Shown one piece after another: positions 4,026-48,500 of a stretch of 64,000 nt of DNA. The stretch comes from an uncultured virus (IMG/VR IMGVR_UViG_3300029448_000008) (lineage: Duplodnaviria > Heunggongvirae > Uroviricota > Caudoviricetes): IMG/VR virus record IMGVR_UViG_3300029448_000008. One strand, written 5' to 3'. A program made the translations under genes and the position numbers. The notes under the pieces were generated by a model. It did not search any database, was not told where the DNA came from, and worked only from the letters and a program-made list of their open reading frames with translations. The first letter of the stretch is position 1, and each line of letters opens with the position of its first letter.

Positions 4026-5141
4026 TTATTCAGTCTGTGAGCTTTCTGCAATATTCGTCTGGTATCTCTGTGACTCTGTGGCTTCTAATAAGTGCTTGAC
4101 TGTTAGGTCTACTATTTCTTGATGTGTATGATCTGCTAACTCACAATCTACTCCCGAAGATAAAGAAATTTCTACTGGCGTCCTAATGTAATCTACGTTC
4201 AGTCCTTTTAATAGATAACTTTTGTTATTAAAAACTTTAATTTCAGTGTTATTTATTATGCCAATTGCACTACTAGGAGTGGAGGTAGCAAAAGGATTTC
4301 CTAAGATATTATAAGCATCATCGGGTTCAATTATACGTAATGGTATTTCTTTTATACGTTTTACAGATATATTATCTATCTTACCATTAAAGTCCGTACT
4401 AGGATTAATTTGTAATAAAGTATTATCTGCTAACGCATGTAATTCAAACTGTTTAGCTGTTGTAGCATGTGTAGTTTGATATATAGTTGCACCAGCAACT
4501 GTAGCGTGGTCAAATGTATATGATGTATTACCTTCACCTGGTGTTCCTGGAGTTCCTAAAGAAATAGTAAAACTACCATTATAAGCACCAGCATCAGCAC
4601 TAGACCCTTTTACAATAACAGATATAAGATATTTATTGCCTTTCTTAACTCTTACTGAATGTGTAGCTGAATCTGTAGACCCGCTCGTGTGCGTGAGGTA
4701 ACCGCTTGTAACTGACCATCTATATCCGCTAGGATCTCCAGCACCCAATGTCCAATTAGTTGCGTTAGCAAATGTACTATTAGTTACTAGTTCAGGATCA
4801 ATTTGACAGTCATCATATAATATTTTAACTCTACCGTTTATTAAGAACATATAATCAGTAGGTAGATCAAAGTCTTCATGATCCGCATAAAGGTTAGGAG
4901 TTACTACATCATCACTGTTATCTAAAACAGTAAGTATACGTAAATCATCAACTCTTTTTTGCGCACCGTGAAGACCCTGTTGTTTAGGATCTGATAAACT
5001 CCAAAAACGTTGTTTAACAAAACGTTCTTGCATTTTATTCAAAGCAAAATCTAGCTCTTCCGGCAAAAATGTGTCGAATGAGTTAGAGGCTACTTTTTGT
5101 AGACCTTGTTCTACCGCGTGATGCATTTCTTGTACAGTCAT
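4026..5141 (-). CDS. crAss-type neck/ring structural protein with inserted jelly-roll-like domain
   Basis: N-terminal MTVQEMHHAVEQGLQK...PEELDFALNK and C-terminal DYIRTP...CELADHTHQEIVDLTV match crAss ring/head-tail proteins; the central ELVTNSTF...GKIDNISVK segment is CBM-like. Confidence 0.7.
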   Translation of the reverse strand: MTVQEMHHAVEQGLQKVASNSFDTFLPEELDFALNKMQERFVKQRFWSLSDPKQQGLHGAQKRVDDLRILTVLDNSDDVVTPNLYADHEDFDLPTDYMFLINGRVKILYDDCQIDPELVTNSTFANATNWTLGAGDPSGYRWSVTSGYLTHTSGSTDSATHSVRVKKGNKYLISVIVKGSSADAGAYNGSFTISLGTPGTPGEGNTSYTFDHATVAGATIYQTTHATTAKQFELHALADNTLLQINPSTDFNGKIDNISVKRIKEIPLRIIEPDDAYNILGNPFATSTPSSAIGIINNTEIKVFNNKSYLLKGLNVDYIRTPVEISLSSGVDCELADHTHQEIVDLTVKHLLEATESQRYQTNIAESSQTE

Positions 5142-5950: not shown

Positions 5951-6025
5951 AATTTTAAAATTTACTAGTTAAAAAAATAGTAAACCAGGGGATATAAAAT
6001 ACCCCCTAATTCACTAAGTTAAATA

Positions 6026-7462
6026 TTATGATTTAACACACTCTAAATGCAAACAATTAGTAGCTCGTCTTATTGCAATTCCGCACTCTTTCATAAAGTG
6101 TACAGATGCACCGTCTACGTCATTTGCTCTTAGGGAGTTTCCACCATTGAATCCTGGAGGAACACTTGCTCCGGCTACTGCCCATCTAACAAGTTCTCTT
6201 CCTTTTCTAGAAATCATTTGAACGTTTTTCTGACCGTCATAAGATGACATGTCTAAGAAAATCATTCTGTAAGACTCTAGAGGTAGTCCTGACACTGGGT
6301 GTTTTGGACTGTTTAATGCTCTAGCACCGTGATCAAATAAAGGTAAATGTCTTACCGTAATTACGTGACCATCAATGTGCTTGTAAGAAGTAAAGAAACC
6401 TCCGAATTGTAGAGCGTTGCTTCCACCTGACATAAATGCACTAGGATCTGTGTTCTTAATATAAGAACCTGAAGATAGCTCGTCTTTCATAGCTGTATCG
6501 AATTCTTCCATACCACCTAATCCAGTAAATAGAACAATGTTCATGTCTTGAGCATCAGAAGCTCCATATAGAGCGTCTCTTACTACAGACTTGATTTTTG
6601 CTGCTGTTAAACTAGAGTAAGAATCAACATTAGGAATTTGCTCGATAACACCAGCTCCTAGAGGAATTGGTTTATTGTTGTCATCTTTAAGAGCAATGGT
6701 TCCGTCAGAAGATCTGTTGTACTTAGAATACCATAAAGCATATTCTGTTTCTTCTTTCCATCTTAACATGTGTTGATATTCTTCGAAGTCATACCATAGG
6801 TTAGTCTTCTTACCATCAACATTAAATTCGAAATTAACCACTCTGTCAGGCATATTTCCTTCATATCTGTAGGATTTTCTGATTAGAGAGATTTGGTTTC
6901 TCATTTTAGATGGAGCAACCCAGTTACTTTCGTTACCAACTGATCCGGAAATAGCAGTAGGTGCAAATAATTGTACCCATTTTTTGTCTGCTACGTCGCC
7001 AGATGCTACTGAATCAGTAGAATCAGCTGTAACTAATTGTAGTGTGTATACCCAACCGCCATCTGCTTCATATGGATCTTCCATAATTCTAGCTTGGATT
7101 CCTCCTTCACTTTCAATAATGTATTGCTTGATGAACCATTTTTCATCGAACTTAACTTTAAATCTAGTGGAGTTAACTCCGGAACCGCTAACTAGAGCTG
7201 AAGCTCTTACGGTTTTGTTTAATCTACCCATTACTGGATAGTCGTACTCAATGTCATTGATGTAATTTAACGCGCCTACACCCTCTGTTAGAAAAGATAG
7301 AGGAAACCTCTTGTCTTCTTTTCCAGCTAGATGAGTGATTACCGGTGAAAGTACATCAGGCTGAGTAAGGAGAGCGTTCGCTAACGAGTTTTCGTCAGTC
7401 ATACCCTCAGCGTTGAAAATGTCTTCGTATAAACGAAGTTTTTTAGCGTTATCTGCTGCCAT
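6026..7462 (-). CDS. Major capsid protein (crAss-type)
   Basis: 478 aa; TDENSL, FPLSFLTEG, LFTGLGGMEEFD, FGGFFTSYKHIDGHVITVRHLPLFD and DGASVHF motifs; follows portal and scaffold genes. Confidence 0.9.
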   Translation of the reverse strand: MAADNAKKLRLYEDIFNAEGMTDENSLANALLTQPDVLSPVITHLAGKEDKRFPLSFLTEGVGALNYINDIEYDYPVMGRLNKTVRASALVSGSGVNSTRFKVKFDEKWFIKQYIIESEGGIQARIMEDPYEADGGWVYTLQLVTADSTDSVASGDVADKKWVQLFAPTAISGSVGNESNWVAPSKMRNQISLIRKSYRYEGNMPDRVVNFEFNVDGKKTNLWYDFEEYQHMLRWKEETEYALWYSKYNRSSDGTIALKDDNNKPIPLGAGVIEQIPNVDSYSSLTAAKIKSVVRDALYGASDAQDMNIVLFTGLGGMEEFDTAMKDELSSGSYIKNTDPSAFMSGGSNALQFGGFFTSYKHIDGHVITVRHLPLFDHGARALNSPKHPVSGLPLESYRMIFLDMSSYDGQKNVQMISRKGRELVRWAVAGASVPPGFNGGNSLRANDVDGASVHFMKECGIAIRRATNCLHLECVKS

Positions 7463-16108: not shown

Positions 16109-16523
16109 AATATATGTATTAATTATATGTAAATATACAAAGTCTCTATAAAAAATACAAAAAAAATTTTTTGCATACTTATGTAAATAAGATTTTTATT
16201 TGTATCATTGATGCTCTAGTCGCAAATCTAGTTAAGTTGCTACACTTCAGATACACCAACTGTTGGATCGGGCAAATTAAGACATCTGAGAAAAGCGATA
16301 TTATCCTTTGTACCTTTCGAGCACCCAAATATCATACTTACTCACGTGCATTTTTCTAAAATTTAAAGGTTCTGGGGGGTGCTAAAGCAAAAAAAGCGCC
16401 CTTATACATAAAGTATCTAAAGGTGTCGATGTATAGACCACCTATTGTAAACCTCCCCCGCTAAACATTGCGGTGTAACTACCCCCGCTAATAAGTGGTA
16501 GTCTAATTAAAAATCGTAATACA
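16109..16523. promoter_or_regulatory. Divergent control region between late (minus) and early (plus) blocks
   Basis: The coding strand switches here; about 400 bp lack a credible gene; GC-rich hairpins and a CCCCCGCTAA direct repeat at 16455 and 16482. Confidence 0.6.
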
Positions 16524-16775
16524 ATGAAAAAGTTATTAGAATATCTGCAAGAAGCAGGTGCAAAGTTTGTTAGAAAGGTCTCTGGACCTAATGGTGCATT
16601 CATCTCATATACCACAGAATCGTGGGATAATAGTGATAGCATCTTTACATTACCAGTAGGTAAGCGTTCTCAGAATGGTAGTATCAAGGAGTATAATGTC
16701 TTGATAACCGATGAAGGACAGGCAATAGCTACTGTAAATGAGTACGAGACTGTCGAAGAGTTGGCAGTTGCATAG
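16524..16775 (+). CDS. Hypothetical early protein
   Basis: First plus-strand ORF, AT-rich leader, followed by a terminator. Confidence 0.7.
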   Translation: MKKLLEYLQEAGAKFVRKVSGPNGAFISYTTESWDNSDSIFTLPVGKRSQNGSIKEYNVLITDEGQAIATVNEYETVEELAVA

Positions 16776-16779
16776 AGTT

Positions 16780-16802
16780 AGGGGAGAGTCACATCTCCCT
16801 TT
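16780..16802 (+). terminator. Intrinsic terminator
   Basis: GGGAGA-GTCACA-TCTCCC hairpin followed by TTT just after the stop codon. Confidence 0.6.
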
Positions 16803-16984
16803 ACCTAGTGTAACCCTCAACAAGTTAATTCAGGTGTGTTTATGACAACCAGGTCTCTCACCCCACAATTCACCACTATTTACCACCTATGTTATATAGG
16901 TATATTATAGTATATAGACTTAATGTAAGCAAGTCTACGAGTAAAGGCTTACAATAATCCAAACCATTTAATAGTATTTATACA

Positions 16985-17194
16985 ATGAAAACAGTAAAAA
17001 CATTAATAAATAACATTTATTACATCTTAATATTAGAAATAGTACAAGATATTAATAAGAGTTATAAGAACAGAGTAGTTAGATATGTCTTGACTACTTG
17101 GATATTAGGTCTTATGTGTATGGCAGTAATAGGTATAGTGTATATGATATACATGATATTCTTTTCCGATCAGATCATAAGTATGGCATTTTAA
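16985..17194 (+). CDS. Small membrane protein
   Basis: Long hydrophobic C-terminal segment YVLTTWILGLMCMAVIGIVYMIYMIFF. Confidence 0.55.
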   Translation: MKTVKTLINNIYYILILEIVQDINKSYKNRVVRYVLTTWILGLMCMAVIGIVYMIYMIFFSDQIISMAF

Positions 17195-17351
17195 ATTATA
17201 GATAGAGAATCCTGGGTTGTTTAGTTACATCGGACGGTAATTTATTACCTACCAGGCTCTATCTTTTAAATTATAGATAGAGTGTGTATTTCAGTATAAT
17301 CCATGCATGTAAAGGCACCGATTATGTGTTTATCATACCACTCTATCTTTT
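17189..17351 (+). repeat. Tandem stem-loop units sharing AGATAGAG/CTCTATCT closing stems
   Basis: TTTTAAATTATAGATAGAG occurs exactly at 17189 and 17264; CTCTATCTTTTA at 17257 and 17341; the interiors differ. Confidence 0.85.
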
Positions 17352-17394
17352 ATATCAATTAAGTTAAATCAATAGTAATTAAATCAACAAAGTT

Positions 17395-17610
17395 ATGTTT
17401 TATAGTAAATTATCAGACGAGTCTATTCGTCACAACATTAATACTGGACAGTTTAATGTAGTAAAACTAGACACCAATAAAGATTATAACAGTTTAATCA
17501 ACACTTATCCTAAGAGATGGCATGATCATATCAAGCAGGCTTTTATGTTTAATTGTAAAGAAATGATTAATGAGTTAGTAAAATATAAGGTTAAGGAGAC
17601 AGCCTTTTAA
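17395..17610 (+). CDS. Hypothetical early protein
   Basis: ORF with A-rich leader. Confidence 0.55.
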   Translation: MFYSKLSDESIRHNINTGQFNVVKLDTNKDYNSLINTYPKRWHDHIKQAFMFNCKEMINELVKYKVKETAF

Positions 17611-17641
17611 TTTGTCTCCACAATTATAATTATTTATAGAT

Positions 17642-18139
17642 ATGGTAAAAATCCAATCAATTAGTGAACCTGTGAAGGATAGTAACGGGAAGAACTACAA
17701 AGTAATCACACTTGAAGCTCCGGCTTTTAAGGAAGTGGTAGACTTGAGTACAGGCGAGTCAATTTTAGCATTAGCTTCACCTAAGACAGTGAAGAAATGT
17801 GTTTGGGAAGAGTCTTATTTAGACGGTAGCAAACATTTTATGTACGATGCTAAAGCAGGACAAGCTGTGTATGGTACTATCTATACTGCATCAACTGATG
17901 AGTATGAGATAGATGAGAGAACTGTTGACACTTATACAGGTTTTGTTGAAGCATTAGAATCTGATGCAAATTTTAATTCAGCAGTAAACACTATGTTAAG
18001 TGACGCAGGTAGAGAACTAGCTTCAAACGCTTCAGATAAAGATTTCAATGTAGCGAAAGAACATAACAGTGGCGAACAACTATCCATTGAGGATGAGGTT
18101 ACTGTTGAAGCAGAAGAATCTATTGAAGAGCAATTCTAA
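17642..18139 (+). CDS. Hypothetical early protein with acidic tail (possible OB-fold ssDNA-binding protein)
   Basis: Beta-rich N-terminus (KDSNGKNYKVITL) and strongly acidic C-terminus. Confidence 0.5.
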   Translation: MVKIQSISEPVKDSNGKNYKVITLEAPAFKEVVDLSTGESILALASPKTVKKCVWEESYLDGSKHFMYDAKAGQAVYGTIYTASTDEYEIDERTVDTYTGFVEALESDANFNSAVNTMLSDAGRELASNASDKDFNVAKEHNSGEQLSIEDEVTVEAEESIEEQF

Positions 18140-18702: not shown

Positions 18703-18780
18703 TGCGTGTCCGCTATGTTTTCATGACAGTTAGAGATGATTAAGCCTGGCACGGGGCTTTTTCTTAAATTTTATATAATT

Positions 18781-19554
18781 ATGGACAAAATACATTTACG
18801 AGGCTTTAGTATTGCCTTGTTAGCATGCATAATGTGTGCTATCCACGCTTACTCACAAAAGAGTCAGCAAGAAAATACTACAATACAAAATACATTTGAA
18901 ATACCAGAAGGATATGAAAGAGTAGAAGATAGATATGCAGATTTCTTTCGTAACTTTCCTATATTAGTTGAAGAAGGAAGATATCATGATGGCAAGACAT
19001 TACCTGGATTAGGTATAACATATGCTGCTATATTTGACTATGCTATAGGCAGAAGAAACTTACATCAATGTGCTGATGCATCAATTTACATGAGAACTAA
19101 ATACATGTTAGACTCAGGTAGAGAGATAAATGATATAAGATGGCATTACACTGATGGATCATGGTTAAGCTATGGTTCTTTTCTTTCTAAAAGAAGAGCA
19201 AAACCTGGTAAAACAAGTTTTTTAGCTTATATGGAAAACATATGGACTTATGCTGGTACATGGTCAATACAAGAATATGAAACGGAATCTGTTAAAATTA
19301 AAGATGCGAGACCAGGAGATATCTTCGTTGAAGGTGGCTTTCCTGGACATGCTGTGACTATTGTTGATATGGTAGAGAATGATGAGGGTAAGAAATTATA
19401 TATGCTTGCCCAATCATTCATGCCTGCACAGTCACATCACATATTACTTGATATAAATGATTCAGTATGGTTTGACTTTGATAGAAATAAAGAAGTTGTA
19501 GCTACACCTGGATGGGTATTTAGTAAAAGAAGCGTTAAACGATTCAATAATTAA
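18781..19554 (+). CDS. DUF4846-family exported protein (papain/NlpC-P60-like Cys-His)
   Basis: Signal peptide after MDKIHLRG; LHQCADA, YAGTWS, PGDIFVEGGFPGHAVTIVDM and LAQSFMPAQ motifs. Confidence 0.8.
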   Translation: MDKIHLRGFSIALLACIMCAIHAYSQKSQQENTTIQNTFEIPEGYERVEDRYADFFRNFPILVEEGRYHDGKTLPGLGITYAAIFDYAIGRRNLHQCADASIYMRTKYMLDSGREINDIRWHYTDGSWLSYGSFLSKRRAKPGKTSFLAYMENIWTYAGTWSIQEYETESVKIKDARPGDIFVEGGFPGHAVTIVDMVENDEGKKLYMLAQSFMPAQSHHILLDINDSVWFDFDRNKEVVATPGWVFSKRSVKRFNN

Positions 19555-25549: not shown

Positions 25550-26224
25550 ATGGAATTACCAACGAAAGTAATCAAATCAACAACAGTAAACCCTTCACTG
25601 TTAACTGTCTTCGGACAATCAAAAGTGGGTAAAACAACAATGTTATCTAAACTAAAGAATTGTTTAATTTTAGATACAGAAAAAGGTACTAAATATGTGG
25701 ATGCATTGAAAGTACAAGTCAATAGTAGCATAGATTTAAAGAACACAGTTAGAGCATTAAAAGAATCAGGTAGTCAATATGATTACTTAGCTCTTGATAC
25801 CATAGACAATGTAGTATCCTGGTTTGAGAAAGATGTAGCTAGAGATAATAATGTAGATAGCTTTGCTAAAATTCCTTTTGGTGACGGCTATAATCAGGTA
25901 CGTACAAGAGTAATGGCTATGATTAGCGCTCTTATGGAATGCTGTGAACATATAATTATTATAGGTCACAGAAAGAAAACTATTATCGGTAATGATTCAG
26001 TAGAGGTTAATGTAAGCTCTCTTGATTTATCCGGTAAGTTAAAGAACTATGTAATGGCAAAATCAGACGCAATTGGTTTTGTATACAGAGACGAAGAAGG
26101 CGATTTAAAGATATCATTTGAAGCATCTGATGAGATAGAGGCGGGTACTAGATTACAGCATCTTGCAGGTAAAATACTTGATTTTAAATGGTCTGAGATA
26201 TACAAGACTGCAGTAGGTAAGTAA
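25550..26224 (+). CDS. AAA ATPase (Sak4/AAA_24-like recombination protein)
   Basis: GQSKVGKTT, LDTEKG, LDTID, PFGDGY, IIGH and SDAIG motifs. Confidence 0.85.
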   Translation: MELPTKVIKSTTVNPSLLTVFGQSKVGKTTMLSKLKNCLILDTEKGTKYVDALKVQVNSSIDLKNTVRALKESGSQYDYLALDTIDNVVSWFEKDVARDNNVDSFAKIPFGDGYNQVRTRVMAMISALMECCEHIIIIGHRKKTIIGNDSVEVNVSSLDLSGKLKNYVMAKSDAIGFVYRDEEGDLKISFEASDEIEAGTRLQHLAGKILDFKWSEIYKTAVGK

Positions 26225-32786: not shown

Positions 32787-32800
32787 GATGGTTTATAATC

Positions 32801-32824
32801 GGGGGGTCTTCGGATCCCCTTTTT
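32801..32824 (+). terminator. Intrinsic terminator with UUCG tetraloop
   Basis: GGGGGTC-TTCG-GATCCCC followed by TTTTT, right after rIIB. Confidence 0.9.
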
Positions 32825-32847
32825 ATATTTAATAATTAATTAGTATA

Positions 32848-33777
32848 TTGTATAAAGACATGGAGTATTTTAAAGATAAAAGAGTAAGTAATTCTTCCTT
32901 AAGTTATATTAACCCAGAACAAGGAGGAAGCGCAAGAAAGTTTAAAGATTATCTAGATGGAAATCTAGCACATTTAGAAACTCCTTCATTATATCACGGA
33001 AGCATGATTCACAAGTTTTTACTAGAGCCTGAAACATTTGCGGTAGCAGATGTAGAAAGACCTAGTGATACTATTGTTAAAATTATGGAGAAAGTATATA
33101 ATATAACAAAAGGAGAACTAGATACAGATATAAACAAGTACCATGAATACATATTTGGTTCTGCAAGAGAACTAAATTATGGACAAACCTGGAAACCGGA
33201 TACTTTAATCAAGAAAGTTATTGATCAAGGTAAAGACTATTATGATTTTTTACTACGTGCTGACGGTAAAGTATGTATAGATCAGAAGATGGCTGGTATG
33301 TTATCAGCTATTAAAGATTCTATAACTACACATAAAGCAGCATCTGACCTGTTATTTACAGGTGAAGGTGAGAATGAGTCAGAGTATTTTTGGGGACCAG
33401 ACCAAGCATATAAATCCAAAATTGACAGGTATCAGAAAACTGGTACTAAAGTCAACCTTATAGATCTCAAGACTACCTCCAAAAGTGTGGAGATGTTTAG
33501 AGATTCCTTTGAGTATTATCATTATGACAGGCAAATGGCATTCTACGTGGATGCATTAGAAGACAATTACATGCTTGTTGACAAAGTATATATAGTTGCA
33601 GTAGAAACAACCGGTTATTATCAAGTAAGAGTGTTCGAGATAGGTAAAAATTTAATAGAAGAAGGTAGAAAAAAATATAAAGATCTACTAGAACGTGTTA
33701 AATGGCATCAAGAACGACAGCTATGGACGGAATCTCGTGAGAGTTTTGAATCCAAAGGTGTAACACTCTTAAATTGA
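32848..33777 (+). CDS. PD-(D/E)xK exonuclease (RecE/exonuclease VIII-like)
   Basis: VSNSSLS, GSMIHKFLLEP, KSKIDRY, IDLKTT and YDRQMAFY motifs. Confidence 0.85.
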   Translation: MYKDMEYFKDKRVSNSSLSYINPEQGGSARKFKDYLDGNLAHLETPSLYHGSMIHKFLLEPETFAVADVERPSDTIVKIMEKVYNITKGELDTDINKYHEYIFGSARELNYGQTWKPDTLIKKVIDQGKDYYDFLLRADGKVCIDQKMAGMLSAIKDSITTHKAASDLLFTGEGENESEYFWGPDQAYKSKIDRYQKTGTKVNLIDLKTTSKSVEMFRDSFEYYHYDRQMAFYVDALEDNYMLVDKVYIVAVETTGYYQVRVFEIGKNLIEEGRKKYKDLLERVKWHQERQLWTESRESFESKGVTLLN

Positions 33778-36184: not shown

Positions 36185-36257
36185 AGAGTGAGTAACTAGA
36201 CTGTAACATTGTGGACTAATACATAGGTCGTCGCACACAATGCTGGTTACTCGCTCT
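36185..36257. terminator. Long hairpin at the convergence of the two transcription blocks
   Basis: AGAGTGAGTAACTAG pairs with CTGGTTACTCGCTCT, inner CATTGTG/CACAATG stem, followed by a T-run. Confidence 0.7.
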
Positions 36258-36471
36258 TTTTTATTTTTTCTACAGCAGATATCCCAAAGCAACCTAATGT
36301 AACCCATACAAATGAGTTATATATTACTTCATTAATTTCTAATCCACCATCTACATATATAATACTTGTTACAAGATCCGCCACAGCAAATAAAGTCATC
36401 ACTATAAAAGATGCAAATCCTATTATATTCTTCTCGTTTATTTCGTTCTTATCTTTAAATAATGCCCACAT
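36247..36471 (-). CDS. Two-TM membrane protein (holin-like)
   Basis: Two hydrophobic helices and a charged C-terminus; likely start MWALFK at 36471. Confidence 0.6.
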   Translation of the reverse strand: MWALFKDKNEINEKNIIGFASFIVMTLFAVADLVTSIIYVDGGLEINEVIYNSFVWVTLGCFGISAVEKIKKSE

Positions 36472-36533: not shown

Positions 36534-39500
36534 TTATCGTTCAGTTATCATTAAGAAATTTCTTAATGCAGTTTCTGGATCTGTCTGTAACCCGCTAATT
36601 CCTAGCCACTGTAGTGCTCTTACTTTAAGTTTGTTTTCACCTTTTTCCCATGGACCTGAGTCTCTTTGGTATTCTTCCATAGGTGCTCCTAATTGTTTTA
36701 ACAACTTCATAGTCCTTTCTATACTAGTTGTCATAGCTGTTGGAGATCTTAATATTCTAAGGAATTCTCCAGCTGCTTGTGGTGTAGGAGCAAAAGCCAT
36801 TATCTCTGCTCTAGTAGTAGTTAATAAATATAATAAATAATATGCAGGTACACTAATTTCTTCATCGTCATCATCTTGCATACCCATTAATATACTAACA
36901 AGTGTTGATAATATAGCTAATATTGTAATTTCATGCATAGTTTTCATAACAGCCTCCTTGTCTTGAGGAGTAAGCATGCTTCTTTTTTTAGTATCTAAAG
37001 CTCTTTTTATTAGATCACTCTCTGCACTAGTCTTCCAAGCATTCCACATGTTAGATATAGCTCTTCTATAAAATCCACCATCCGGTTCTCCTTTCTCATG
37101 ATTAACAAAATCAACTCTCCATCTATTCATTACTGTAGGTATAAGGAATTTTCTAAATAATTCTATCATTCTACCTGCAGCTGTCTGTGACAATACAGAT
37201 TTGTCTATAGATTTATAATTACCATTTAATCTTCTGTTCATTTCTGCTATCTCTAATGTAGTAGTTCTAATAATTTCTTGAGCTGTTTTCTTTTCTGCAG
37301 CTGTACCTTTAAATTCAAACTTCCCTGTTTTTTTATTTACTTTAAAAGCATCATATAACCCTACCTCTTCACCATTTACAACCACCTTTCGTTTTTTAAG
37401 CAATGCAATAGCCGCTGCTCCCTGGGCTGCAACCTCTCCTATATGATAATTTATTAATAAGTTATCTGGATTTAATAATGTTTGTCTTAATAAAGTATTA
37501 CCTGTAGTTTGCTTACCAGAAGCAAAATCATCAAACTCTCCTTGTATAGCATCAAAATATAATAACAATTGACCTAGATAACTTTTGTTGCCTAATTTTT
37601 GATATTTATCAACGAACAATGCTTTTATATTAGTAGGACTAACCATAGCTTTGTGTCCATCCAAAAACTCTGTTAATGATATTTTTCCTTTGTTTGCTCG
37701 TGCTGCTCCGGCTTCTATACCTTGTTGCCAGACAGCTGTTAAAAAGTTTCTTGACCCTTTTAAGAAATCTAATCCTAAAGTTGTTATAGCTGTATATCCT
37801 AAAATATTATCGACTATTTTATCTATCTGTATATTTGTACCAGGTAGCATTGTAACGTTTTTAGTTTTACCTAATAACACCATTTCAATATATTTTTCTA
37901 ATCTTTTAGCTACATAACTCTCTCCTTGTTTTATACTTGCTATTTTTCTACCAAGTTTATTAATACCTATAACATCAGGTCTTGTAGGATCTATAATTCT
38001 ATTTTGATTATAAGTATCTCTTAACATGTATGCTAACTTAAGAACTTCATTATTTTGTTCTGTTCTTAGTGCTGCATTAGAAAAAGTCATTAAAGATCCT
38101 TTTACATCTAAAGAAACTTCATTGGCATCTATATCCTCCATAAAATATACAGGCGCATAATTTCTTGTTTGATTTTGCATAGCTGCATATCCATATACAA
38201 ATGCGTCATCTTCATCTACTCTGAATAATCTTTCAGCCTCTTCCTTTATACCTTCAAAAGTTTTCTTATCTAATATTCTATCATAGAAACCTTTTCGTAG
38301 AGATGGTAATGACATATCTACGGTTTGTTTTTTATACACTTTTGCTAGTGCATCTCTATAGATTTCTGTAAACTGAGCATGTGCTTGTCCAATTTTATTT
38401 TTAGGTTTATCTGTTTTATCATATAAGTTAGACCATTTTTTATTTATATACTTATCGTTTGGTTGTGTTACCTGGTATCCAAAGTATACAGGATTGTCGT
38501 TCTTCATACCGGACACAGCTGATTCTACAGACTGCATCATATCAAACTCTGGTTTACCTATAATACCTAACTTATACATTGCAGCTGGATTCATTTGACT
38601 TCTAGCCCAACCTCTTACATCATTCTGTCTTCTCATTATAGTTCTAATCTCATCTTCAGTTTTAGGCTTCATGTTCTTTTTATACCAACCGGTTTTTCTA
38701 AGTTGTAATCTTAACAAGTCTTTTTCTTCTGGTCCTACTTTCTTTTGTGTTTCTAATCTTTGCAGTTGTGTTTCTAAATCACTTATAATATCTGCTACAC
38801 CTTCCTGATCTTCTTGTAGTTTATAACCTTCTAGTTGCGCTTTTACTTTTTTAATACGTCTATCTAGATTAGCAAAATACTCTACTCTTAGCTTTTTCAT
38901 CAGATCGCTGTTAGATGCAATCTTAAGCTCTGCTTCTTCTAGTGCTTTTTCAAATAATGAAATATCATATTTAGTAACAAGAGTCCAAACATCTTTATTA
39001 CCTGTTCCTCTATGATTTATTAACTCTATAATATCTTCATATAATTCTCTAGGATTATTAGACACTTTACCTCCTTGTTCTTTTTTAGCTTCCTTTAATA
39101 AGTTATCTGTGCTTTCTAATTCGTTAGATATATTAATAGCTTCTCGTCTAGCTTCTATTGCTAAAGATGATGTATAATTAACAAGTGCTGCTAACCCTGG
39201 ATCTGATGTAGTACCGGGTGCCATAAGCATATAACCTAACCAATCCATGTCATGTGAACTATATAATAAGAAGTTAGCAAAGTCTGTTTCTGATTGTGGT
39301 GCTTGTTCTGCTAGTTTAGAAAACTTAGCTACACTTCCTTTTAATCTACGAATTTTATCTGCTTTTGCTTTATCATCTAAGTCTGATGCTAGTATTTTAT
39401 CTATCTGTTTATTTACATCATCTAATCTTATATCTACAAACTTTTTAGTTTCTACTCCTGATTTTTTAATCATAGGATATAACTTGTTTGCTAGCACAGG

Positions 39501-42500
39501 TATAAACTCTTTACGTAATGTAGTCTTCATATTCTCTAAAAGAGTAACAGATTCCTGCAGTTTCTTTAACATCTTCTCGCTCTCTTTGTATTTTGTATTT
39601 TTAAGCTTAGATTTAAATGCTTCAGGTAACTCATTAATAAAAGACATATCTTCTAGTAATATTCTATACTTTGTAAGACCATCTATCATTTCTTCTACAG
39701 ATCTATTTTTACTTAAGAATGTATTAAGCAAAGTATGCTGTGCTTTTACATCATCATAGAAATCATCTATACTATTAAATACATCTTGTGCTAGTTCTAT
39801 ATCAGCTATAATTTTAGCAAGCCTTGCAGATCTATTTTTAACAAATGCAGTATTCTTAACATTACCTTTTTGTATTTCTTGCAGCTGTTTATTTAAAAGT
39901 ATAAGTACATTATTTGTAACGTTCCTATCCGGGTCAACGCTTCTCATCTTAACAAGATCTTCAGTAGTCTCTGGCATATATGGTTTTAACTTAAGAACCA
40001 TACCTGCAGATCGTAATCCTTTTATATAATCTTTCTCTTGTTTAGTACCGTTTTTCTTCCAGTCTTCTAGATTTTTGTATCCTAGCTCTTTAGCTAAATC
40101 TTCTTGTTGTGATTTACGTAAGTTTGTAAAAGATCCTAAAGCGGTTTTACCTTGTATGGATGCCATACCTCTATCTTTGTTGCCTTCAAACATTCTTACA
40201 ATAGACTCTAGTATAGGCATTGCTTCTCCGTCAAATACCATCTGAGAAAACTCCTGGTTAGTTAGTAACTTAGATACATTAGAAGCTGTAGTTTTAACTA
40301 CTATATCACTAAACATACTAGAATTACCTGCAGGTAGATTAAACATCTGGTCCTGTGAAAAGCTTGCGTACTCATAGTCTTTACTTAGTAGTCTATCTAC
40401 TGGGGTTAACAATCTAGATAACTCAGCTAATTCTGAGCCTTCTTGTATTTCTATGCCAAATACATTGGCTAATAGTTGTACAAATTTACTCCACATACTT
40501 TGCAATATACCTTGCTCGTTAGGAGATCTTAGTTTGTTTAAGTCATTGACTAGTGCTTCATCTTTATATACTAAGTGTGTTATTAGTTCTTCAGCTGCTT
40601 TCTCTTCGTCTTTATAAAATTTATTATATCTATTAAATATAGCTTGTATGCCTTTTGCATTCTCATCATTACCATGGTTTTCAACAAGCTGCTTATACCA
40701 GGATAATACATCCTTTCTTAGTTTAGTTTTCTCTTCTTTAGGTAACGTGTCTAGACCCGCATGTAGTGCTTCTTCTAAGAATAAAGAAGTGCTAAGATTA
40801 TTTAATGTAATTTTACCTTGCATATAGCTACTACCTTTAGCTTGCGGATCATATATTACTTTAACACCAGCCTTTTCTAAATTATTTATCAAAGGAGTAA
40901 ATTTCTTTATATTAAGTTCTTTTGCTATCTGTGTAGGAGTATACTCTCCAGCTGCAAAAGTCTCTGTAACCTCTTCTATTTGCTCTAATTTAACAGGTCC
41001 TTCTATAAAAGCAGGCTTTGTTTTAGGTATAACACCTGTTTCTTGTGCTTGGTCTAATGCTTTAGAAAACTTCTCAAATGTTTTTGCAGGTAAGTATTTT
41101 ACAAAAGAATTATTTACAAAATCTAACTTACTAGTACCAAACAAGTAACGTAATAAGTCATCTGCTAAGCCTTTATTATCTTCAAATAAATCTTCAAAGT
41201 TACCAATAAGTAATCCTTCTATTTCCGGGCTCATTTTAGTTTGACTATCTGCTATTAACTTACCATCTGCAACTCTTAATAAAGCATGTAGTGCAATGTT
41301 ATTTTTATACTTAGGATTTTTCTTAAGCTCTTGTATTCTTTGTATAATTCTAGCGGCATCTGCTTTTGTAGTATTACCGTATACACTTACAAAAACTTTC
41401 TGTACATCTACATCATTTAAAAATCCTTTATCATATATATTATTTAAGTTATCTAATACATTTTTGCTATTTTCATATACAGGATGAACTTGTCTTAACG
41501 CTTTATTATCATTAAGACTTTTCATAAGGAAGCCTCTTCTTCTATTGTTAGTAGCAAACTGCTGATCTAATCCACTAACTGTAGATAATACTTGAGTTAA
41601 CTCTCTTACATTATCTGCAGCTGGTCCAGTTAATATACTTCCTACAACATCTAAGGCTGCTTTTTGTGTTTGTAAATATTGTGTTTCTGCAGTAGATAAC
41701 TCTTGATTATTATTAAGTTTATCTAATACATCAGTAAATATTAAGTCAGATTTTAAATGTTTATCTAGTTCTTTACTATTCAACTCTACTGCTTTTATAC
41801 CTTTTAGTTGTTGTTGTAACGTTGCAAGATGATAATTGCCTTTGTAACCTTCTGGTGGTGTTACAAGTTCTTGCTGCTCTGTATAATATTTTAAAATAGG
41901 TTGATTAACTATCATAAGAGTTCTCATCTGACCTATACCTAACGCTATAAGATCCGTAGCAGCTACAGTCATATCTGCACTTAAGTTAACTTGCGGTGCT
42001 AGTCCTAACTTAACGTTATCTACAAAAAGTGTAATAATAGAAGACATAGAATCAAACTTACTTCTAGTTCCTTCTTCTAATTCTAGCTTATCATTTATAT
42101 CATCTTCTTTTACTATAGTATAAGTATTATATTCTTTACCGTCTATAGTAATAGCATTTACAGGTATTTGCATTTGTTCTGCAAACTGTGTAATTATAGA
42201 GTAAGCACTGTTAGCATTAGCTCCTATACCTACATTGCCCGCACCTATTTTATTTTGTACATGGTAATCTAATATACCGGTAACAGTAAATATAGATTTT
42301 TTAGTTTCTTTGCCTCCATACTTTTCTACAAAGTCTCTTGCTTTACCTTCGGTAGCAGGTTGGAACATTACCTCTTGTACTTCTGGAGTATTAAATATAG
42401 CAAACATATTATCTAACATGTTATTTTGTAATGCTTGAGGATGTGAGTATGCTGCTTGTCCTTCGTCATTTAGTATACCAAGTCTTTGCATTGTTTCTGT

Positions 42501-45500
42501 AGGTCCTAAACCAAATACTTGCTGTGCAAGTTTAACATATTGATTTTCACCCCAATACTGTTTGTATTGTGCTAACGTTGGTTCTGCAGGTAATACAACT
42601 CTTAGACCTTCTTCGTTTACTATAGATGCATATCTATGTAAGTATAGTTTATCTAAGTCATAATCGGATCCTGCAAGAGCCGGTAACTCTAGTGGTGTTA
42701 CTATAGAGTCTCCTTGTGCATCTGGTAAGAATCCTACAACTTTTAAAGGTATCATAGAGTGATGCGCTTGTACAGGAATACGTACACCAAATGCGGTTAA
42801 TAGTTTAGAAGGCACATCTTTTATGTTTTCAAACTCATTAAGATTAAACATCTTTCTAGATGCTAGTATCTCAGCGTATTCAATAGTTCCATTTACATTT
42901 CTATGTATTCTAAGTGGTTGACCTGTTTGCGGATTTACAAAGTGTGTACCAGATATAAGAGTAGCTTGACCTCCTACAGCTCTACTAGTAAGTGCATCTC
43001 TATTAAACAAGTTTAGTATAGCATTCTTTACTAAATTTCGAACGTGTGGTATGTTATAATTATAATTTTCAAATAAATCCAGAATTGTATCATTTCGTCT
43101 ACCTCTATTATTTTCTAGTATAATAGCCTTTGCTAAATCTCTGTTATTCGGGTCAGATACAATTGTATTAACAAGCTCATTAAATATAGCTTTGTTGTCT
43201 GCATTAGATTGATTTATAACATCTACTATTTGTCTGTTATCTCCTTGTACTACAGATCCTATTAGATCGTGCAGCTGTTTAGCTACTGCAGATTCAGTTT
43301 CTATTCCATATCTAGACTTAGTTTTATTTACTACCTGGTCTCTTTCATATTGCATGCTACCTTCAAAGATTAAATCTTCGTTAATATCTTGTGTTGTATT
43401 AAAGAAGTCAGATGATACACCAGGATCTGATTTTCTTTTACTAGCACTCTGTGCAATAAGGTACATTACTTTATTATTATTAAGTGCATTATATATGTTT
43501 AACAATTGTGGGTTACCTGCTCTATCTTGTTCTTCTGCAAGGGATTGTGTTAAAATAAAATCTGATTTTTTAAAGTATCTATTACCATCTTCATACACAG
43601 TCTTTGTACTGTTAAGATCTAACCTATTCATTTCAGAAGGAGTTAGTCTTATAGACGGATCATCTAAACTCTTTTTTAATTTTTCTAGTATTTGTTTTTG
43701 TTTATCAGATGTATAATTATTAGACTCTAGTTCTCTTACAGCATACATTTTATCTGTAATAATTACCTGAGCATCATTTGTTACACTCTGTACACCAAAA
43801 TCTGTATCGATGACATTGTCATCTATCATAAGATATTTGTAGTTTATAGTACCTTTCTTAAGACCAGCTGCATTAAACCCGGCTAAACGTTTATTAAAAT
43901 CTACATCATTTTTAAAATTAGAATCTCCTAGAGCCAATTGTGTGTAGTTACCACCCATTATTAGGTAGTTTAAAGCCATATTACCTACCTTAGAGTTATA
44001 ATCTCCTACACTAGGACCATCTAACACTAACTTATCTATATCGTCTCTTAGCTTTAATTGTGTTATTCTATTATTTAGATCTGCAATTGTAATTTGTAAT
44101 GCAGGTTTTATAATATTATCTTTTATAAATGACTCTATACCGTCTAATGTTTCTCTACCTTTTAAAAATTCAGGCACAGTTTGCTTCTCACCATTAATAC
44201 CTGTAATCTCCATGTTTTCTAACATAGATAATATACCAAAGTATTGACCTCCATCTAGTTTACCTTCGTCTGTTAAGTTACGTTCAAACTCTCTAACAAA
44301 TAAACTATTGTACATATCGTCTATAGCTAGTTGTGTAACTCCTCCATCATAATATCTTTTCTTAGGCAGTCTTATAGCATATAAAGACTTTTTACTTTCT
44401 ATTACATGTGGTGTGTAGTAAGCATGTCCCTGTATGTCTTCATTTAAGAAGAGCCCGAACATTAACATTAATCTTTGTTTATCAGATATAGTTTTATTAG
44501 TAGCAGTGTCTTGTCCTTGTACAAAGTCTCCTGCCATTTTTATTTCTATGCCTGATACATTATCTTTTAATAAGTTATTAGGTAGTAATGTAAACCTATC
44601 ATTAAGTTTACCTTCTTTTGCAAGTCGTGCAACTTCCATGTATAAGTTTCTAGGTACATATCTATATCTAGATTTACCCTCTGCGTCTCTATAGTTAGCT
44701 TCGTATGTAGACGGATCAAAGATAGCAGCTATTTTTGCCATCTTGTATAGAGGATGATTTTGTTTTAGACTGTTTGGTTTTTTGTTATAGTTACTTAGTT
44801 TACCTAAGAACCCTTTAAAGTTACCAAGCTCGTTATACATTAGTTCAGGATATGCATCTCTAAGTGCTTGATCTCCTAGCATATACGCAGCTGCGGCTGG
44901 TGTTATCTGCCATCCTAACTTATCAAATGCTTTAACTAATAACTCTGTATTACTATATGGAGTTCCTTCTTTCTCTAATATAGTATTGATTAATCTTATA
45001 GCAGCATTCTTAGTCTTTGTGTCTATACCAGCACTATTACTATACCATTTATTTAGTATTAGCTTAGGCGCATCTTGTGATACAGGGTCTACAATATTAG
45101 CTTTGTTATCTTCTACTAACATTTTCACATACCCTAACTCGAATCTGTTAAATGCATTTACAAAACCTGGTATAAAACTAGGATTATTTTTTAGTGCTAG
45201 TCTTACTTGTGCTATTTGCGGATCGTATGCTGCAACAGCATCAAGTCTAGCCATTATGTTACCTTCGTTTGTTTGATTAGATAACATCATCATAAGTTTA
45301 CCTGCTATAGTATGACCATCTAATGTCTTAAGTATTTGTGTAGTACCGTACTTTTCAGATTGCCATGTAGTTCTACCAAAGATATCTGTAGTAGGTGTAG
45401 TTAAATTAGATATAAATTGTTTTATTCTACTAGGAAGAGAATCTATACCTCCTAGTTCTGTAAAATCCATATCCCAATTTGCACTTAATATATCAGCCTC

Positions 45501-48500
45501 TTCTTCTACATATTTGTATTGAGCTTTTACTTTATCAAATAAAGAAGATCTATCAAACTCAGGAGATTGTAATATAACTTTTTGTCTTAAGGCAAACTTA
45601 GCCTGTTCTACTACTTGTTTATACTCTTCTTTAGTATATGTCTTATTAGGATCTACAAAAGATTTAATAGTTATACCTTCTATATATTTATCTAGTATTT
45701 GATTTAATGCATCAGTAACATCCTCTGTAAATACATCTCCATCTTTCAGCTGTGCAAACAACTGCGACTCTAAATCTAATCTTACACCATTGTTAAGATT
45801 TTTAACGTCTAGGTTAGCCATTTCATCACCTAGTTCTTTACGCAATTGTTGTTCTAACTCTTCAGCTGTATAAGATTCTTTGTCTTCTAAAGAGATTTCT
45901 TCTTCTATTACTTCTTCTGTAAATGTAGGTTCTTGTAAAGTGTATATATCATTACTAACCTCAATAGACATAGTAGGATTAACAAAGCTTGCACCTGGTA
46001 GTAAACTACTTTCGAAGTCTGCAGGATTTATTTCTGATCCGTCATTTGGTATACTCTCTTTAAAACTACCATTTGTTATTTGTGACCCTCCTTGTATATT
46101 AGCAAGAGCTCCATTAATAGTATCTATTATAGTCTTAAGAGATGCGTTATTAGCAAGTCTTATATTATTTAAACCATTTATCTTTTGATACTGGTCTTTT
46201 ACTTTACGCTGCCCGTATATACTAAGCTTATAAGAGTTAGTCTTCTTATCAAAGTCTGCTCCTACTTTAATATCTATACCGTCAATTGCTATAAACATGT
46301 TTAGTTTTTTATTTATAGCATCTAGTTCTTGATTATAGTCTAACTCTACTCCGGTTTTTACTAGTTGGTTTAGTCTAGCTATGTCTTTCTTAAGAGTCTG
46401 TAGTCTTTTGTTAGCGGCTTTTTCATCTACCTTTTTAGGAAATATTCTAACCCAGTTAACAACGTTACCTCTTTTAACTAATGCAAAATATCTACCTTTA
46501 AACTCATTACCTGGTAGCATAGACATGTGCTCTTCAGAAGGATTAGTCCCTAATATAACTTTACCTAAGTGTTTGTCATATATAATATAATCTCCGTCAA
46601 ATGTATGAGGGCTAGTAATATTATCAATACTTATTCTTGACTCCTGGTTGTTGTTAGCTAAGCCTCCTTGGAATTTAAAAGAAAATAAACTATCATCTAA
46701 TATTTGTGGGTTTTCTAAACTAGCACTAGGATATAAAGTTTCTAGTTTAGTTAGTGCATCATTTAATATTTTATAATTATTTTGAAACTCTGCCCATGAT
46801 TGATCCGTAAAAGGTTGTCCTGTCTTCTTAAAGTTTTTATAGAAAAACTCTTTGGTCATCTTATCACCAGGTATTAAATTACCTTCTTTATCATAAAATC
46901 TATTACTAGATCTTATAACTCCTAACAAGTTTCCAGATCTCATATCACGTATCTGTAAGAATGATCCGTTCATATTTATCTGCATGTCCCCTTGTTGTAT
47001 AGGATTATTACCAAGCTCTCTAGGTACAGAAACAAATTCTATTTGTATATTTTTAATCAGGTCTGGGTCAGTAAGAATTCTATCTGCTAGTTCTTCTTTT
47101 GTCATAGTGCCCATAGATCCTGCTTCTGATACCACGTGTAACCAGTAGGTAGTTAGGAAGTTATCCATGTGTTTATTGTTATCTATAGTAGGTGCTAAAT
47201 ACTCCCCTTTAACATCCTTCTCTTTAATAACAATATTTTTACCGTCTTTGTCTTTGTTTTTTAGTACGTATTGTTTTTTACCATCTGGTCCTATTTCTAT
47301 TCTTTCTATTTCACTAGTTTCATTATTACCATGTACTATATGTGTAGGTGGTACACTATCTACAGTACCTCCTATAACATCTTCTACAGCTTTAGCTTGT
47401 CTATCTGCTTGCTGTTGTGCTTTAACTTGTGCTTCTTTTTGTTTTCTTTTTCTTTTTTCTGAAAAAGTTTCTTTAGGTGTATTTTCATCCTCTTTTGTCT
47501 TTTCACTTTTTGGAGCTTCTTGTTCTTCTTGCTGTTCTTCATCTGTTTTCATAGACTCAGATATAGCTTGATCGTATTCAGCCCATGTATCAGGAGAAGT
47601 TAAGATTTCATTAATCTTATCATCATGTTGTTTTATATTTTCATCAAGAGTTTGTATAAGAGCATCATATGCTTCTTGTTCTTTACCGGCTTGCGCGGCT
47701 CCTGTTACTTTTAAACTTTCTACTATGTCTTTAAATCTTGGGTCTTTACCTAAAGATTTTAATAGTTGATTAAACTTTCTTTTTTTACCTGGTTGTAAAG
47801 AATTAAACAACTCTTCTATTTTTTGTTTTTGATACTCTGATCTAGTTTTTTGTAATGCTAATTGTTTTAATCCTTGAACTATAGTATTAGGTATATTTTC
47901 TAAATTATATTGTTTTGCTAGATTTGGATCAGCAAAGTATTCAAGCATAGTATCATTAATGCTTTTAAGATTAGTAATACCTAATTCTTCAGCTTTAATT
48001 TTATCTAACCTTTTTTGTTTTTCAACATCAGTTAGCTTATCATTAGATTCTATATCAGCTCTTCTTTTATTTAATCTGTTTAATCTGTCTTTATAATTTA
48101 CATCATGTAGTAAACTTTGACCTACTACATATTGTCCTTTAGGTGATAGATAACTATAAGCTATTTCATTTTGTTTCCATAGTTCATTTAATCCATCTAC
48201 TTTTTTCTTTAATTTATTTCTTTGATACAGACTTAATGTTTTTTCTCCATATAGGTGATCTATCATTTGCGTTACATCTGTATATCTACCTTCAGCAATA
48301 AGAGTCATAAGATCCGGTTCATAAGCACTATCCATTATAGTACGTGCTCCTGCTCCTAATATAAATCCTAAACCTCCTTCTTGTAAAAGTTGACCAGTAT
48401 CAAAGGCTCCTACTCTAAATTTACCTTTACCAAACTGTGCATCTTCTGGTGCAAAATAATTATTATATGTTCGTTCTGTTGCTTGTACAATACTTCCTTG

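Follow-up and report, generated by a model that had tools for sequence, protein, structure and literature searches.

A single intergenic slot in the genome of an uncultured marine crAss-like phage holds two tandem hairpin units that carry a sense-strand signature, share a conserved closing helix, vary in number and content among related phages, and have been conserved or transferred module by module. Given that relatives carry one or two hairpins with other interiors at the same slot, we regard these as exchangeable non-coding modules and not as a CRISPR-like array. The account we favor, tentatively and at somewhat less than an even chance, is that the units act as sense-strand RNA punctuation modules (a terminator/attenuator or a processing and stability signal) that are swapped by recombination at their shared borders.

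The hairpin slot and its genomic setting

The window analyzed here, i.e., the whole 64-kb stretch of DNA, represents most of the phage genome. It encodes a Crassvirus major capsid protein at 6026–7462 (Pfam Crass_capsid, E 2.7e-89) and a large terminase with 39% identity to that of the Flavobacterium phage FpV21. Given that a related contig of 43.8 kb was rated 54% complete, we place the genome size at roughly 80 kb, with an estimated ~1/5 lying outside the window. The genes switch strand near 16.1–16.5 kb, at the minimum of the cumulative GC skew, and the + strand carries a family-A DNA polymerase and helicases. A giant ORF of 4861 aa is located at 36534–51119, and the recombination-type proteins of the phage include an AAA_24 ATPase (25550–26224) and a PD-(D/E)XK nuclease (32848–33777). 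The strand switch itself contains a divergent, gene-free stretch of 415 nt (16109–16523) with A/T runs and G-rich patches, which could be the seat of the origin, the genome ends, or an early control region. We also noted an early-block ORF (18736–19554, + strand, 272 aa) that is a member of DUF4846 (E 8.4e-50), a family of unknown function.

The hairpin slot lies ~0.7 kb inside the replicative block on the + strand, the counterpart of the early block in the crAss-like Cellulophaga phage phi14:2 (10.1101/2020.03.07.982082). The array occupies most of the 200-nt gap between ORF69 and ORF71, both early ORFs on the + strand, and is laid out as follows.

16985–17194, + strand: ORF69, a small hydrophobic, predicted membrane protein (TAA stop at 17192–17194)
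17189–17199, + strand: leader TTTTAAATTAT, the last 10 bases of which recur in the linker after unit A
17200–17264, + strand: unit A, 65 nt, AGATAGAG (17200–17207) and CTCTATCT (17257–17264) enclosing a 49-nt interior; −20.7 kcal/mol
17265–17274, + strand: linker TTTAAATTAT, AU-rich, a copy of the leader that also supplies the U-run of unit A
17275–17348, + strand: unit B, 74 nt, AGATAGAG and CTCTATCT enclosing a 58-nt interior; closing helix AGATAGAGTG / CACTCTATCT; −23.5 kcal/mol
17349–17394, + strand: trailer, a U-run (TTTAT) followed by repeated TAAATCAA boxes up to the ORF71 start; conserved in relatives
17395–17610, + strand: ORF71, located immediately after the slot; a small, conserved protein of unknown function

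The stop codon of ORF69, which returned no family match, sits within the leader TTTTAAATTAT, 5 nt upstream of unit A. Both units in the window then read AGATAGAG...CTCTATCT followed by TTTTA. An earlier note, made from the sequence alone, had described two back-to-back units with a constant closing stem and variable interiors, and the sequence reads as claimed; the pattern AGATAGAG-N30-60-CTCTATCT has two matches in the 64-kb window versus none in each of 100 dinucleotide shuffles. The arm pair is confined to this slot within the window, the remaining six single AGATAGAG words being scattered and unpaired, and a 19-nt sequence (TTTTAAATTATAGATAGAG) occurs exactly twice, 75 nt apart. The inner stems named in the earlier note were recovered in the minimum-energy folds (CCTGG/CCAGG and GGTAAT/ATTACC in unit A; TG.GTAT/ATAC.CA in unit B), with the interior of unit B forming a long irregular hairpin inside the closing helix. 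The note had further described the junction as a 26-nt palindrome, which holds for the outer 8+8 bases and fails for the 10-nt center (TTTAAATTAT), as this is not its own reverse complement. On the + strand, whole-unit fold z-scores were −3.2 for unit A and −4.4 for unit B. A 19-codon frame within unit B was considered as a micro-ORF and rejected as non-coding, given that the differences in the related unit B′ comprise four nonsynonymous and no synonymous changes.

Directly 5′ of the ORF71 start (17353–17394, + strand), TTAAATCAA is present in two exact copies (17364 and 17379) and a partial copy at ~17353; these copies are kept in relatives and could be a regulator site or an expression signal. 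A separate hairpin overlaps the ORF71 stop codon (about 17593–17617, within 17593–17641, + strand; L060 670–726 and L061 428–482 in relatives), in which a 7-bp stem is kept despite changes at five positions (GGAGACA/TGTCTCC, GGTACAC/GTGTACC, GGCACAC/GTGTGCC). On its 3′ side, a conserved ACAATT..TTATTTATAGAT box lies against the start codon of ORF165, a protein whose matches in the protein atlas were solely to unnamed clusters. For ORF71 itself, the atlas gave a lead to the HUH nucleases (score 0.90, on just 110 shared features), which we rejected: there was no Pfam match, no conserved Tyr follows the conserved WH(D/N)HI motif, and the predicted structure is an all-helical model (pLDDT 69) without a match in the PDB. 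A profile search with ORF71 returned only 10 proteins at E ≤ 0.001, eight of which are 30–80 aa in length; the two longer matches (328 and 1763 aa) involve short repeated stretches only (E ≥ 3e-4).

Conservation and exchange of units among related phages

Relatives were fetched from IMG/VR and metagenomes, anchored on the DNA polymerase and the conserved ORF165. The slot is visible in 13 related marine contigs counted by name, some of which may be one population sampled twice. Several other contigs end before the slot (L039, L040, L042/43/50, L053, L054, L061, and L062) or lie inside a long insert (L052 and L060). All 13 relatives carry one or two units at the same slot, nine of them a single unit with half sites only; the variable unit number, which the earlier note had proposed looking for in relatives, was seen together with swapped interiors. 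Including the window, the 14 contigs display eight arrangements built from six interior types (A to F).

Window: A + B
L049: A′ (13-nt interior deletion relative to A) + C (106 nt)
L058 and L059: B
L048: B (contig cut upstream)
L063: B, followed by ~680 nt of additional, mostly non-coding sequence
L038/47: B′
L046 and L055: B″
L056: B‴ + E (112 nt)
L057: D
L041/45, L044, and L051: F

The six interior types have no detectable similarity to one another, with only A and A′, and B and B′, being related, and their lengths range from 36 to 96 nt. Every unit in all contigs lies on the + strand, and the B family, found in 9 of the 14 contigs, is the commonest. The linkers between units also vary among relatives (TTTAAATTAT, TTTATATCATAT, and TTTATATCAATAT). 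The A + B and B-only arrangements are separated by a clean indel of 75 nt, with the 19-nt repeat at its borders. When a loose pattern (AGATA...TATCTTTTA) was searched in four related viral contigs, it was found only at the slot in two and at one unpaired chance site in the third; the fourth, which does not reach the slot, had no match. In the cultured phages phi14:2 and FpV21, AGATA...TATCT units are absent, the only matches being unpaired chance occurrences.

The additional sequence in L063 (97–775; also seen in L060 1–290 and L052 1–220) is inserted exactly where the TTTAT after unit B would otherwise meet the TAAATCAAT boxes. The insert opens with a stem-closed unit of its own (AGGAACAGAAGGT...CACCTTTTGTTCCT, then TTTG) and closes with a small hairpin followed by TTTTTT. 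It contains at most one ORF (66 aa, no family match), has no Rfam match, and has an overall fold z-score of −1.1.

The invariant part of the units is AGATA on the 5′ side and TATCT on the 3′ side, and it is pairs 6–8 of the closing helix that differ between types. These are G-C, A-U, and G-C in units A, B, and C (AGATAGAG/CTCTATCT) and C-G, A-U, and A-U in type F (AGATACAA/TTGTATCT), which amounts to two double-sided changes; type D (AGATAGGG/CTCTATCT) has a G.U at pair 7 and type E (AGATAGAG/TTCTATCT) a G.U at pair 8. On the − strand, the G.U pairs of D and E, plus two more in B and B′, become A.C mismatches. Given the double-sided changes in F and the G.U pairs in D and E, the closing helix is selected for pairing. 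The search for stem covariation in relatives that the earlier note had suggested thus came out in its favor, with the closing stem kept by covariation and sense-strand G.U pairs, and this fits an RNA element on the early (+) transcript.

The sequence 3′ of the closing helix points to the same strand. TTTTA follows the 3′ arm in six of the seven unit versions (A, A′, B, C, D, and F), and this T run is specific to the + strand; on the − strand, it is ATAATTTAAAA that comes after the hairpins. Unit E lacks the U-run and has extra outer arms (ATATCAATA / TATTGAT.AT). Among 10 distinct unit sequences, fold stability on the + strand compared to the − strand was higher in six, equal in one, and lower in three. 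Whole-unit folds on the + strand gave z-scores of −1.4 to −6.0 across relatives, and the interiors alone gave +0.67 to −1.78 with none below 5% of the shuffles; the fold signal therefore resides mostly in the shared ends, since the interiors by themselves are no more stable than shuffled sequence. The closing helix is AT-rich, with 3 G-C among its 8 pairs, and encloses 36–96 nt.

In unit B, conservation extends over the entire unit. All 74 of its 74 bases are identical in the window and L059, as part of a run of 92 consecutive identical bases (92/92) comprising the leader, B, and the first trailer bases, and the flanks are 73% (ORF69, left) and 86–89% (downstream, right) identical (unit B versus flanks, Fisher p = 1.4e-6). 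Across 15 pairs of B carriers, the unit is 89–100% identical, even with flanks at 62–67%, and it occurs on four diverged left-flank backgrounds. Unit B can nonetheless vary: B and B′ are separated by seven substitutions, two of which form one compensatory pair (U-A to C-G) and two of which keep pairing via G.U or A-U, the remainder being unpaired. Covariation inside B, with one double-sided pair in five sequences, does not by itself attain significance (the observed score was reached by 51 of 500 shuffles). Because B can vary and yet is 100% identical on diverged backgrounds, recent transfer, strong selection, or both are indicated; its identity between diverged flanks likewise suggests that units move or stay as whole modules.

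Searches beyond these relatives returned little. The 4-kb neighborhood has no DNA similarity to any of 50,697 phage records, and units A+B, C, and E alone gave no match to the same records at E ≤ 1. Rfam 15 yielded no gathering-level match in the window (two chance-level hits, E > 2, within 16700–17700) and none at E ≤ 1 in seven related loci, and no tRNA or tmRNA was found in the window. The interiors share only chance-level words with the rest of the window (best E 0.04). For the array (17189–17360), there was no match in 126 family-level Flavobacteriales genomes, and 400 order-level Flavobacteriales genomes gave seven weak matches, which is about chance, five of them on the AT-rich linker and adjoining arms. 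The comparison of repeat and interiors with host and phage genomes that the earlier note had called for hence gave no match beyond chance in these phage and Flavobacteriales sets, the Flavobacteriales part being a weak test. For mimicry of a CRISPR repeat, there was no convincing match in the same 126 and 400 genomes or in a scan for the arm pattern.

The arms followed by TTTTA were scanned in one genome for each of 185,579 species, giving 66 loci, none with two copies on the same strand; 12 of these sequences were examined and all were unrelated, and the other 54 were judged from the match table. These loci include a Legionella group with one common match length and one Bacteroidota MAG with a (AGATAGAG)n hairpin repeat in five contigs (L132, L134, L175, L188, and L190). 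The MAG hairpins consist of tandem AGATAGAG/CTCTATCT words with short loops and represent a genome-specific palindromic element unrelated to the phage units. In IMG/VR, the arms plus U-run matched 37 loci, one of which is the relative IMGVR_UViG_3300017786_000530; judging by the match table and a rough expectation of ~23, we attributed the remaining 36 to chance. The trailer pattern matched 64 IMG/VR loci, seven of them with an 8-nt stem (four known relatives and three unrelated loci without AGATA arms), the 3′ part of unit B matched two loci, both known, and the leader pattern matched a single unrelated locus. A full-text search of open PMC and bioRxiv articles found no published description of the element.

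Possible roles of the hairpin modules

As punctuation, the units would be non-coding hairpin modules on the sense strand of the early transcript after ORF69, in which the closing helix AGAUA-NNN / NNN-UAUCU directly followed by UUUUA would most likely mark a transcript end. The helix and U-run would act on the polymerase as intrinsic terminators or attenuators do, stopping or pausing it. Cleavage within the AU-rich linker would also leave a hairpin that blocks 3′ exonucleases; the early message upstream would in that case have a stable hairpin at its end, and cleavage on both sides of a module would free an RNA of about 65–110 nt. Whole cassettes would be exchanged among related phages by recombination at the borders (leader plus 5′ arm; 3′ arm plus U-run), which would produce constant ends, unrelated interiors, and a varying number of units.

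The phage carries a comparable signal elsewhere. At 36185–36257 (+ strand), a 73-nt long hairpin with a 15-bp closing stem is followed by UUUUUUAUUUUUU (z −5.2); it sits at the convergent junction that closes the + strand gene block (36185–36270) and is probably the terminator of this block. Large closed hairpins with a U-run thus appear to be used at transcript ends of the phage. Canonical, compact, GC-rich terminators are also present, near 5975–6010 (− strand) and 32800–32830 (+ strand), and the units are therefore not the standard terminator form of the phage. A scan with an intrinsic-terminator consensus did not list the units, and a generic scan for a closed stem plus T run was too noisy for this AT-rich genome. 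Promoter-like sites were not enriched in the scan (33 versus 28.6 ± 5.8 in shuffles), and no promoter was detected for the units.

Four marine metatranscriptome runs from three studies contained contigs covering parts of the locus, which give no strand, ends, or levels. Two of these RNA contigs (from two studies) start in the 3′ half of unit B and run through ORF71 and ORF165, whereas unit A and the 5′ half of B have no contig over them. The contigs hint, if only weakly, at expression of the region downstream of B, with read-through or restart; if the two contigs running from unit B into ORF71 reflect RNA, termination would be incomplete.

Several findings count against punctuation. The closing helix is AT-rich, unlike the canonical GC-rich terminators of the phage, and unit E has no U-run. 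Punctuation signals usually recur along an operon, whereas the units are found at one slot only. Other findings speak against a mere terminator: five interior types share the sequence conservation of both arms, which such a role does not explain, and neither does it explain why unit B keeps at least 89% identity over its full length, with the interior, in 15 of 15 pairs with flanks as low as 62–67%.

The conservation of unit B, along with its spread, makes the strongest case for the main rival to the punctuation reading. This rival, which we consider unlikely, is that the units are free, trans-acting small RNAs. Here, the helix and U-tail would be a scaffold or processing handle and the variable interior a payload (a regulator directed at the host or at defence, a decoy, or a protein sponge), making the slot a small library of exchangeable RNA genes; this retains the core of the earlier note minus CRISPR. 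A unit conserved beyond its coding flanks and found on four left-flank backgrounds would fit a payload that is selected and spreading, and interiors that are weakly self-structured would leave single-stranded sequence free to pair or bind. The G+C content of the units (35–40% versus 29–37% in 2-kb genome windows) and the location of the slot in the early region, where the phi14:2 phage makes abundant stable ncRNAs (10.1101/2020.03.07.982082), point the same way. Against free small RNAs, no target or model was found (the absent target being weak evidence), there is no Rfam family, and no promoter for separate transcription was detected.

In a bolder version, to which we give rather less credence again, the slot would be a library of small RNA genes that phages exchange horizontally. 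The handle AGAUA... / ...UAUCU-UUUUA would be recognized by a single processing or binding factor, and a swappable payload would set the target. The payload would act on, e.g., host defence or host gene expression, and unit B would be a core member spread across diverged marine crAss-like backgrounds. If true, such a library would do with RNA what the hypervariable early cassettes of anti-defence genes in phages do with protein-coding genes.

The slot may instead be a recombination or indel hotspot at the DNA level, devoid of RNA function, where an unstable palindrome after ORF69 gains and loses filler and the arms are points of homology or slippage. We find this improbable, even though unit number and content differ among close relatives, ~680 nt are inserted exactly after the TTTAT of unit B in L063, A′ equals A minus 13 nt of interior, the interiors are not significantly structured, and the phage encodes recombination-type proteins of its own (the AAA_24 ATPase and PD-(D/E)XK nuclease). 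Only the sense RNA can accommodate the G.U pairs found in the closing helices of D and E and within B and B′, the U-run is sense-specific, the compensatory changes in F preserve the helix, and the conservation of unit B is far above that of neutral filler.

In the coliphage N4, early hairpin promoters with a short stem and a 3-nt loop serve the virion RNA polymerase. By analogy, the units might be hairpin promoters for an injected virion RNA polymerase, driving ORF71 and the replication genes, which we judge very improbable. The window does encode a 4861-aa giant ORF, and in crAss-like phages it is in such ORFs that the virion RNA polymerase resides; the units are also upstream of the replication module. 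In the phi14:2 study, the enzyme could use denatured DNA as an in vitro template, and no linear motif was found for early promoters (10.1101/2020.03.07.982082). However, there is a single site in 64 kb and none before the first + strand early ORF, the interiors of 36–96 nt are unlike the short stem and 3-nt loop of N4, the G.U pairs are on the non-template-sense strand, and the placement of the units directly after a stop codon, with a U-run, is end-like and not start-like.

The CRISPR-like reading of the earlier note, along with an RNA anti-CRISPR (a repeat mimic) or a MITE-type transposable element, is the least credible of all, and its array and MITE forms are largely refuted. The junction CTCTATCT-TTTAAATTAT-AGATAGAG does resemble a repeat with half copies at both ends, solitary repeat units mimicking CRISPR repeats are known from phages (PMC10651486), and the arms resemble terminal inverted repeats, with unit A lying between direct repeats (TTTAAATTAT). 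However, the slot holds one full 26-nt junction and two half copies, with three different linkers among relatives, the full repeat is missing from the single-unit genomes (9 of 13 relatives), and the supposed spacers are 49 and 58 nt (36–96 nt across relatives). The remark that no cas gene is visible held for the ORFs scanned: the 39 ORFs of at least 100 aa and the early small ORFs yielded no cas gene, nor any integrase, transposase, or reverse transcriptase. A MITE is likewise contradicted by one slot per genome, a different interior each time, and no consistent target duplication; unit E lies between inverted and not direct repeats, and the direct repeat around unit A is the start of the next unit.

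Comparison with known systems

Few known phages are as abundant as the crAss-like phages, yet little is understood of how their early genes are transcribed. The phi14:2 study found no motif for early promoters (10.1101/2020.03.07.982082). A slot of gene-less hairpin modules that are kept, duplicated, and exchanged offers a compact system for studying how early transcripts are ended or processed, and also for asking whether non-coding modules travel between phages like accessory genes. If the payloads are functional, they would constitute a new class of exchangeable phage small RNAs.

Among known early-region signals, the coliphage T7 has RNase III hairpins between its early genes, which are irregular and ~60 nt in size, and cutting at these yields messages that end in a protective hairpin. 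The units described here are also irregular hairpins of similar size between early genes; however, the T7 sites occur at several junctions and are alike throughout, whereas here there is a single site, and similarity between the units is confined to the stem base. The CRISPR mini-arrays and RNA anti-CRISPRs (Racr) of phages (PMC10651486) share with the units a short repeat with dyad symmetry that borders unique segments in a phage genome. The units differ in having no constant repeat or spacer length, no cas gene, and no matching host repeat among those searched.

The phi14:2 phage has two long early intergenic regions that give rise to abundant ncRNAs, which are stable late in infection and of unknown function (10.1101/2020.03.07.982082). 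Both cases concern a crAss-like phage, the start of the early or replicative block, and rightward non-coding sequence, and we found that the phi14:2 ncRNA region folds into stem-closed units followed by U-rich runs (e.g., L064 4271–4389). There is, however, no sequence similarity, the phi14:2 region extends over ~1.7 kb compared to 0.16 kb here, and the present units are known from sequence. In a separate observation on the phi14:2 phage, a GGGGGTTCGAATCCCCC stretch within its highly transcribed non-coding region (L064 ~4465–4500) resembles a tRNA T-arm, and part of its "long non-coding RNA" may be tRNA- or tmRNA-like.

Intrinsic terminators and 3′ stabilizing hairpins come closer in form. As in these, a sense-strand helix is directly followed by a U-run, a few bases after a stop codon and here in tandem, and the block-end signal of the phage itself (36185–36257) is also a long hairpin with a U-run. 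The closing helix of the units is AT-rich, however, and the interior is large and often branched, unlike the compact G+C-rich stem and short loop of a typical terminator. Moreover, the arms are conserved in sequence and not in pairing alone, E has no U-run, and termination would not require an interior as conserved as that of unit B.

In T4-type phages, the PeSL (promoter-early stem-loop) cassettes are based on a short, conserved, non-coding motif with a terminator stem-loop, located in plastic early regions; breakpoints of insertions, deletions, and replacements between close relatives fall at the motif, which is thus an exchange point between otherwise unrelated sequences (PMC2839356 and PMC4122927). 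For the units, too, the breakpoints of indels and replacements between close relatives coincide with a conserved motif. PeSLs, however, occur in many copies on either side of whole ORFs and include a strong early promoter of the sigma-70 type, whereas here there is one slot per genome and no promoter was detected. The conserved part is also split, with two arms closing 36–96 nt of non-coding payload. Read as punctuation modules, the units would therefore have their nearest functional analog in the PeSL cassettes, but with gene-less payloads and split borders.
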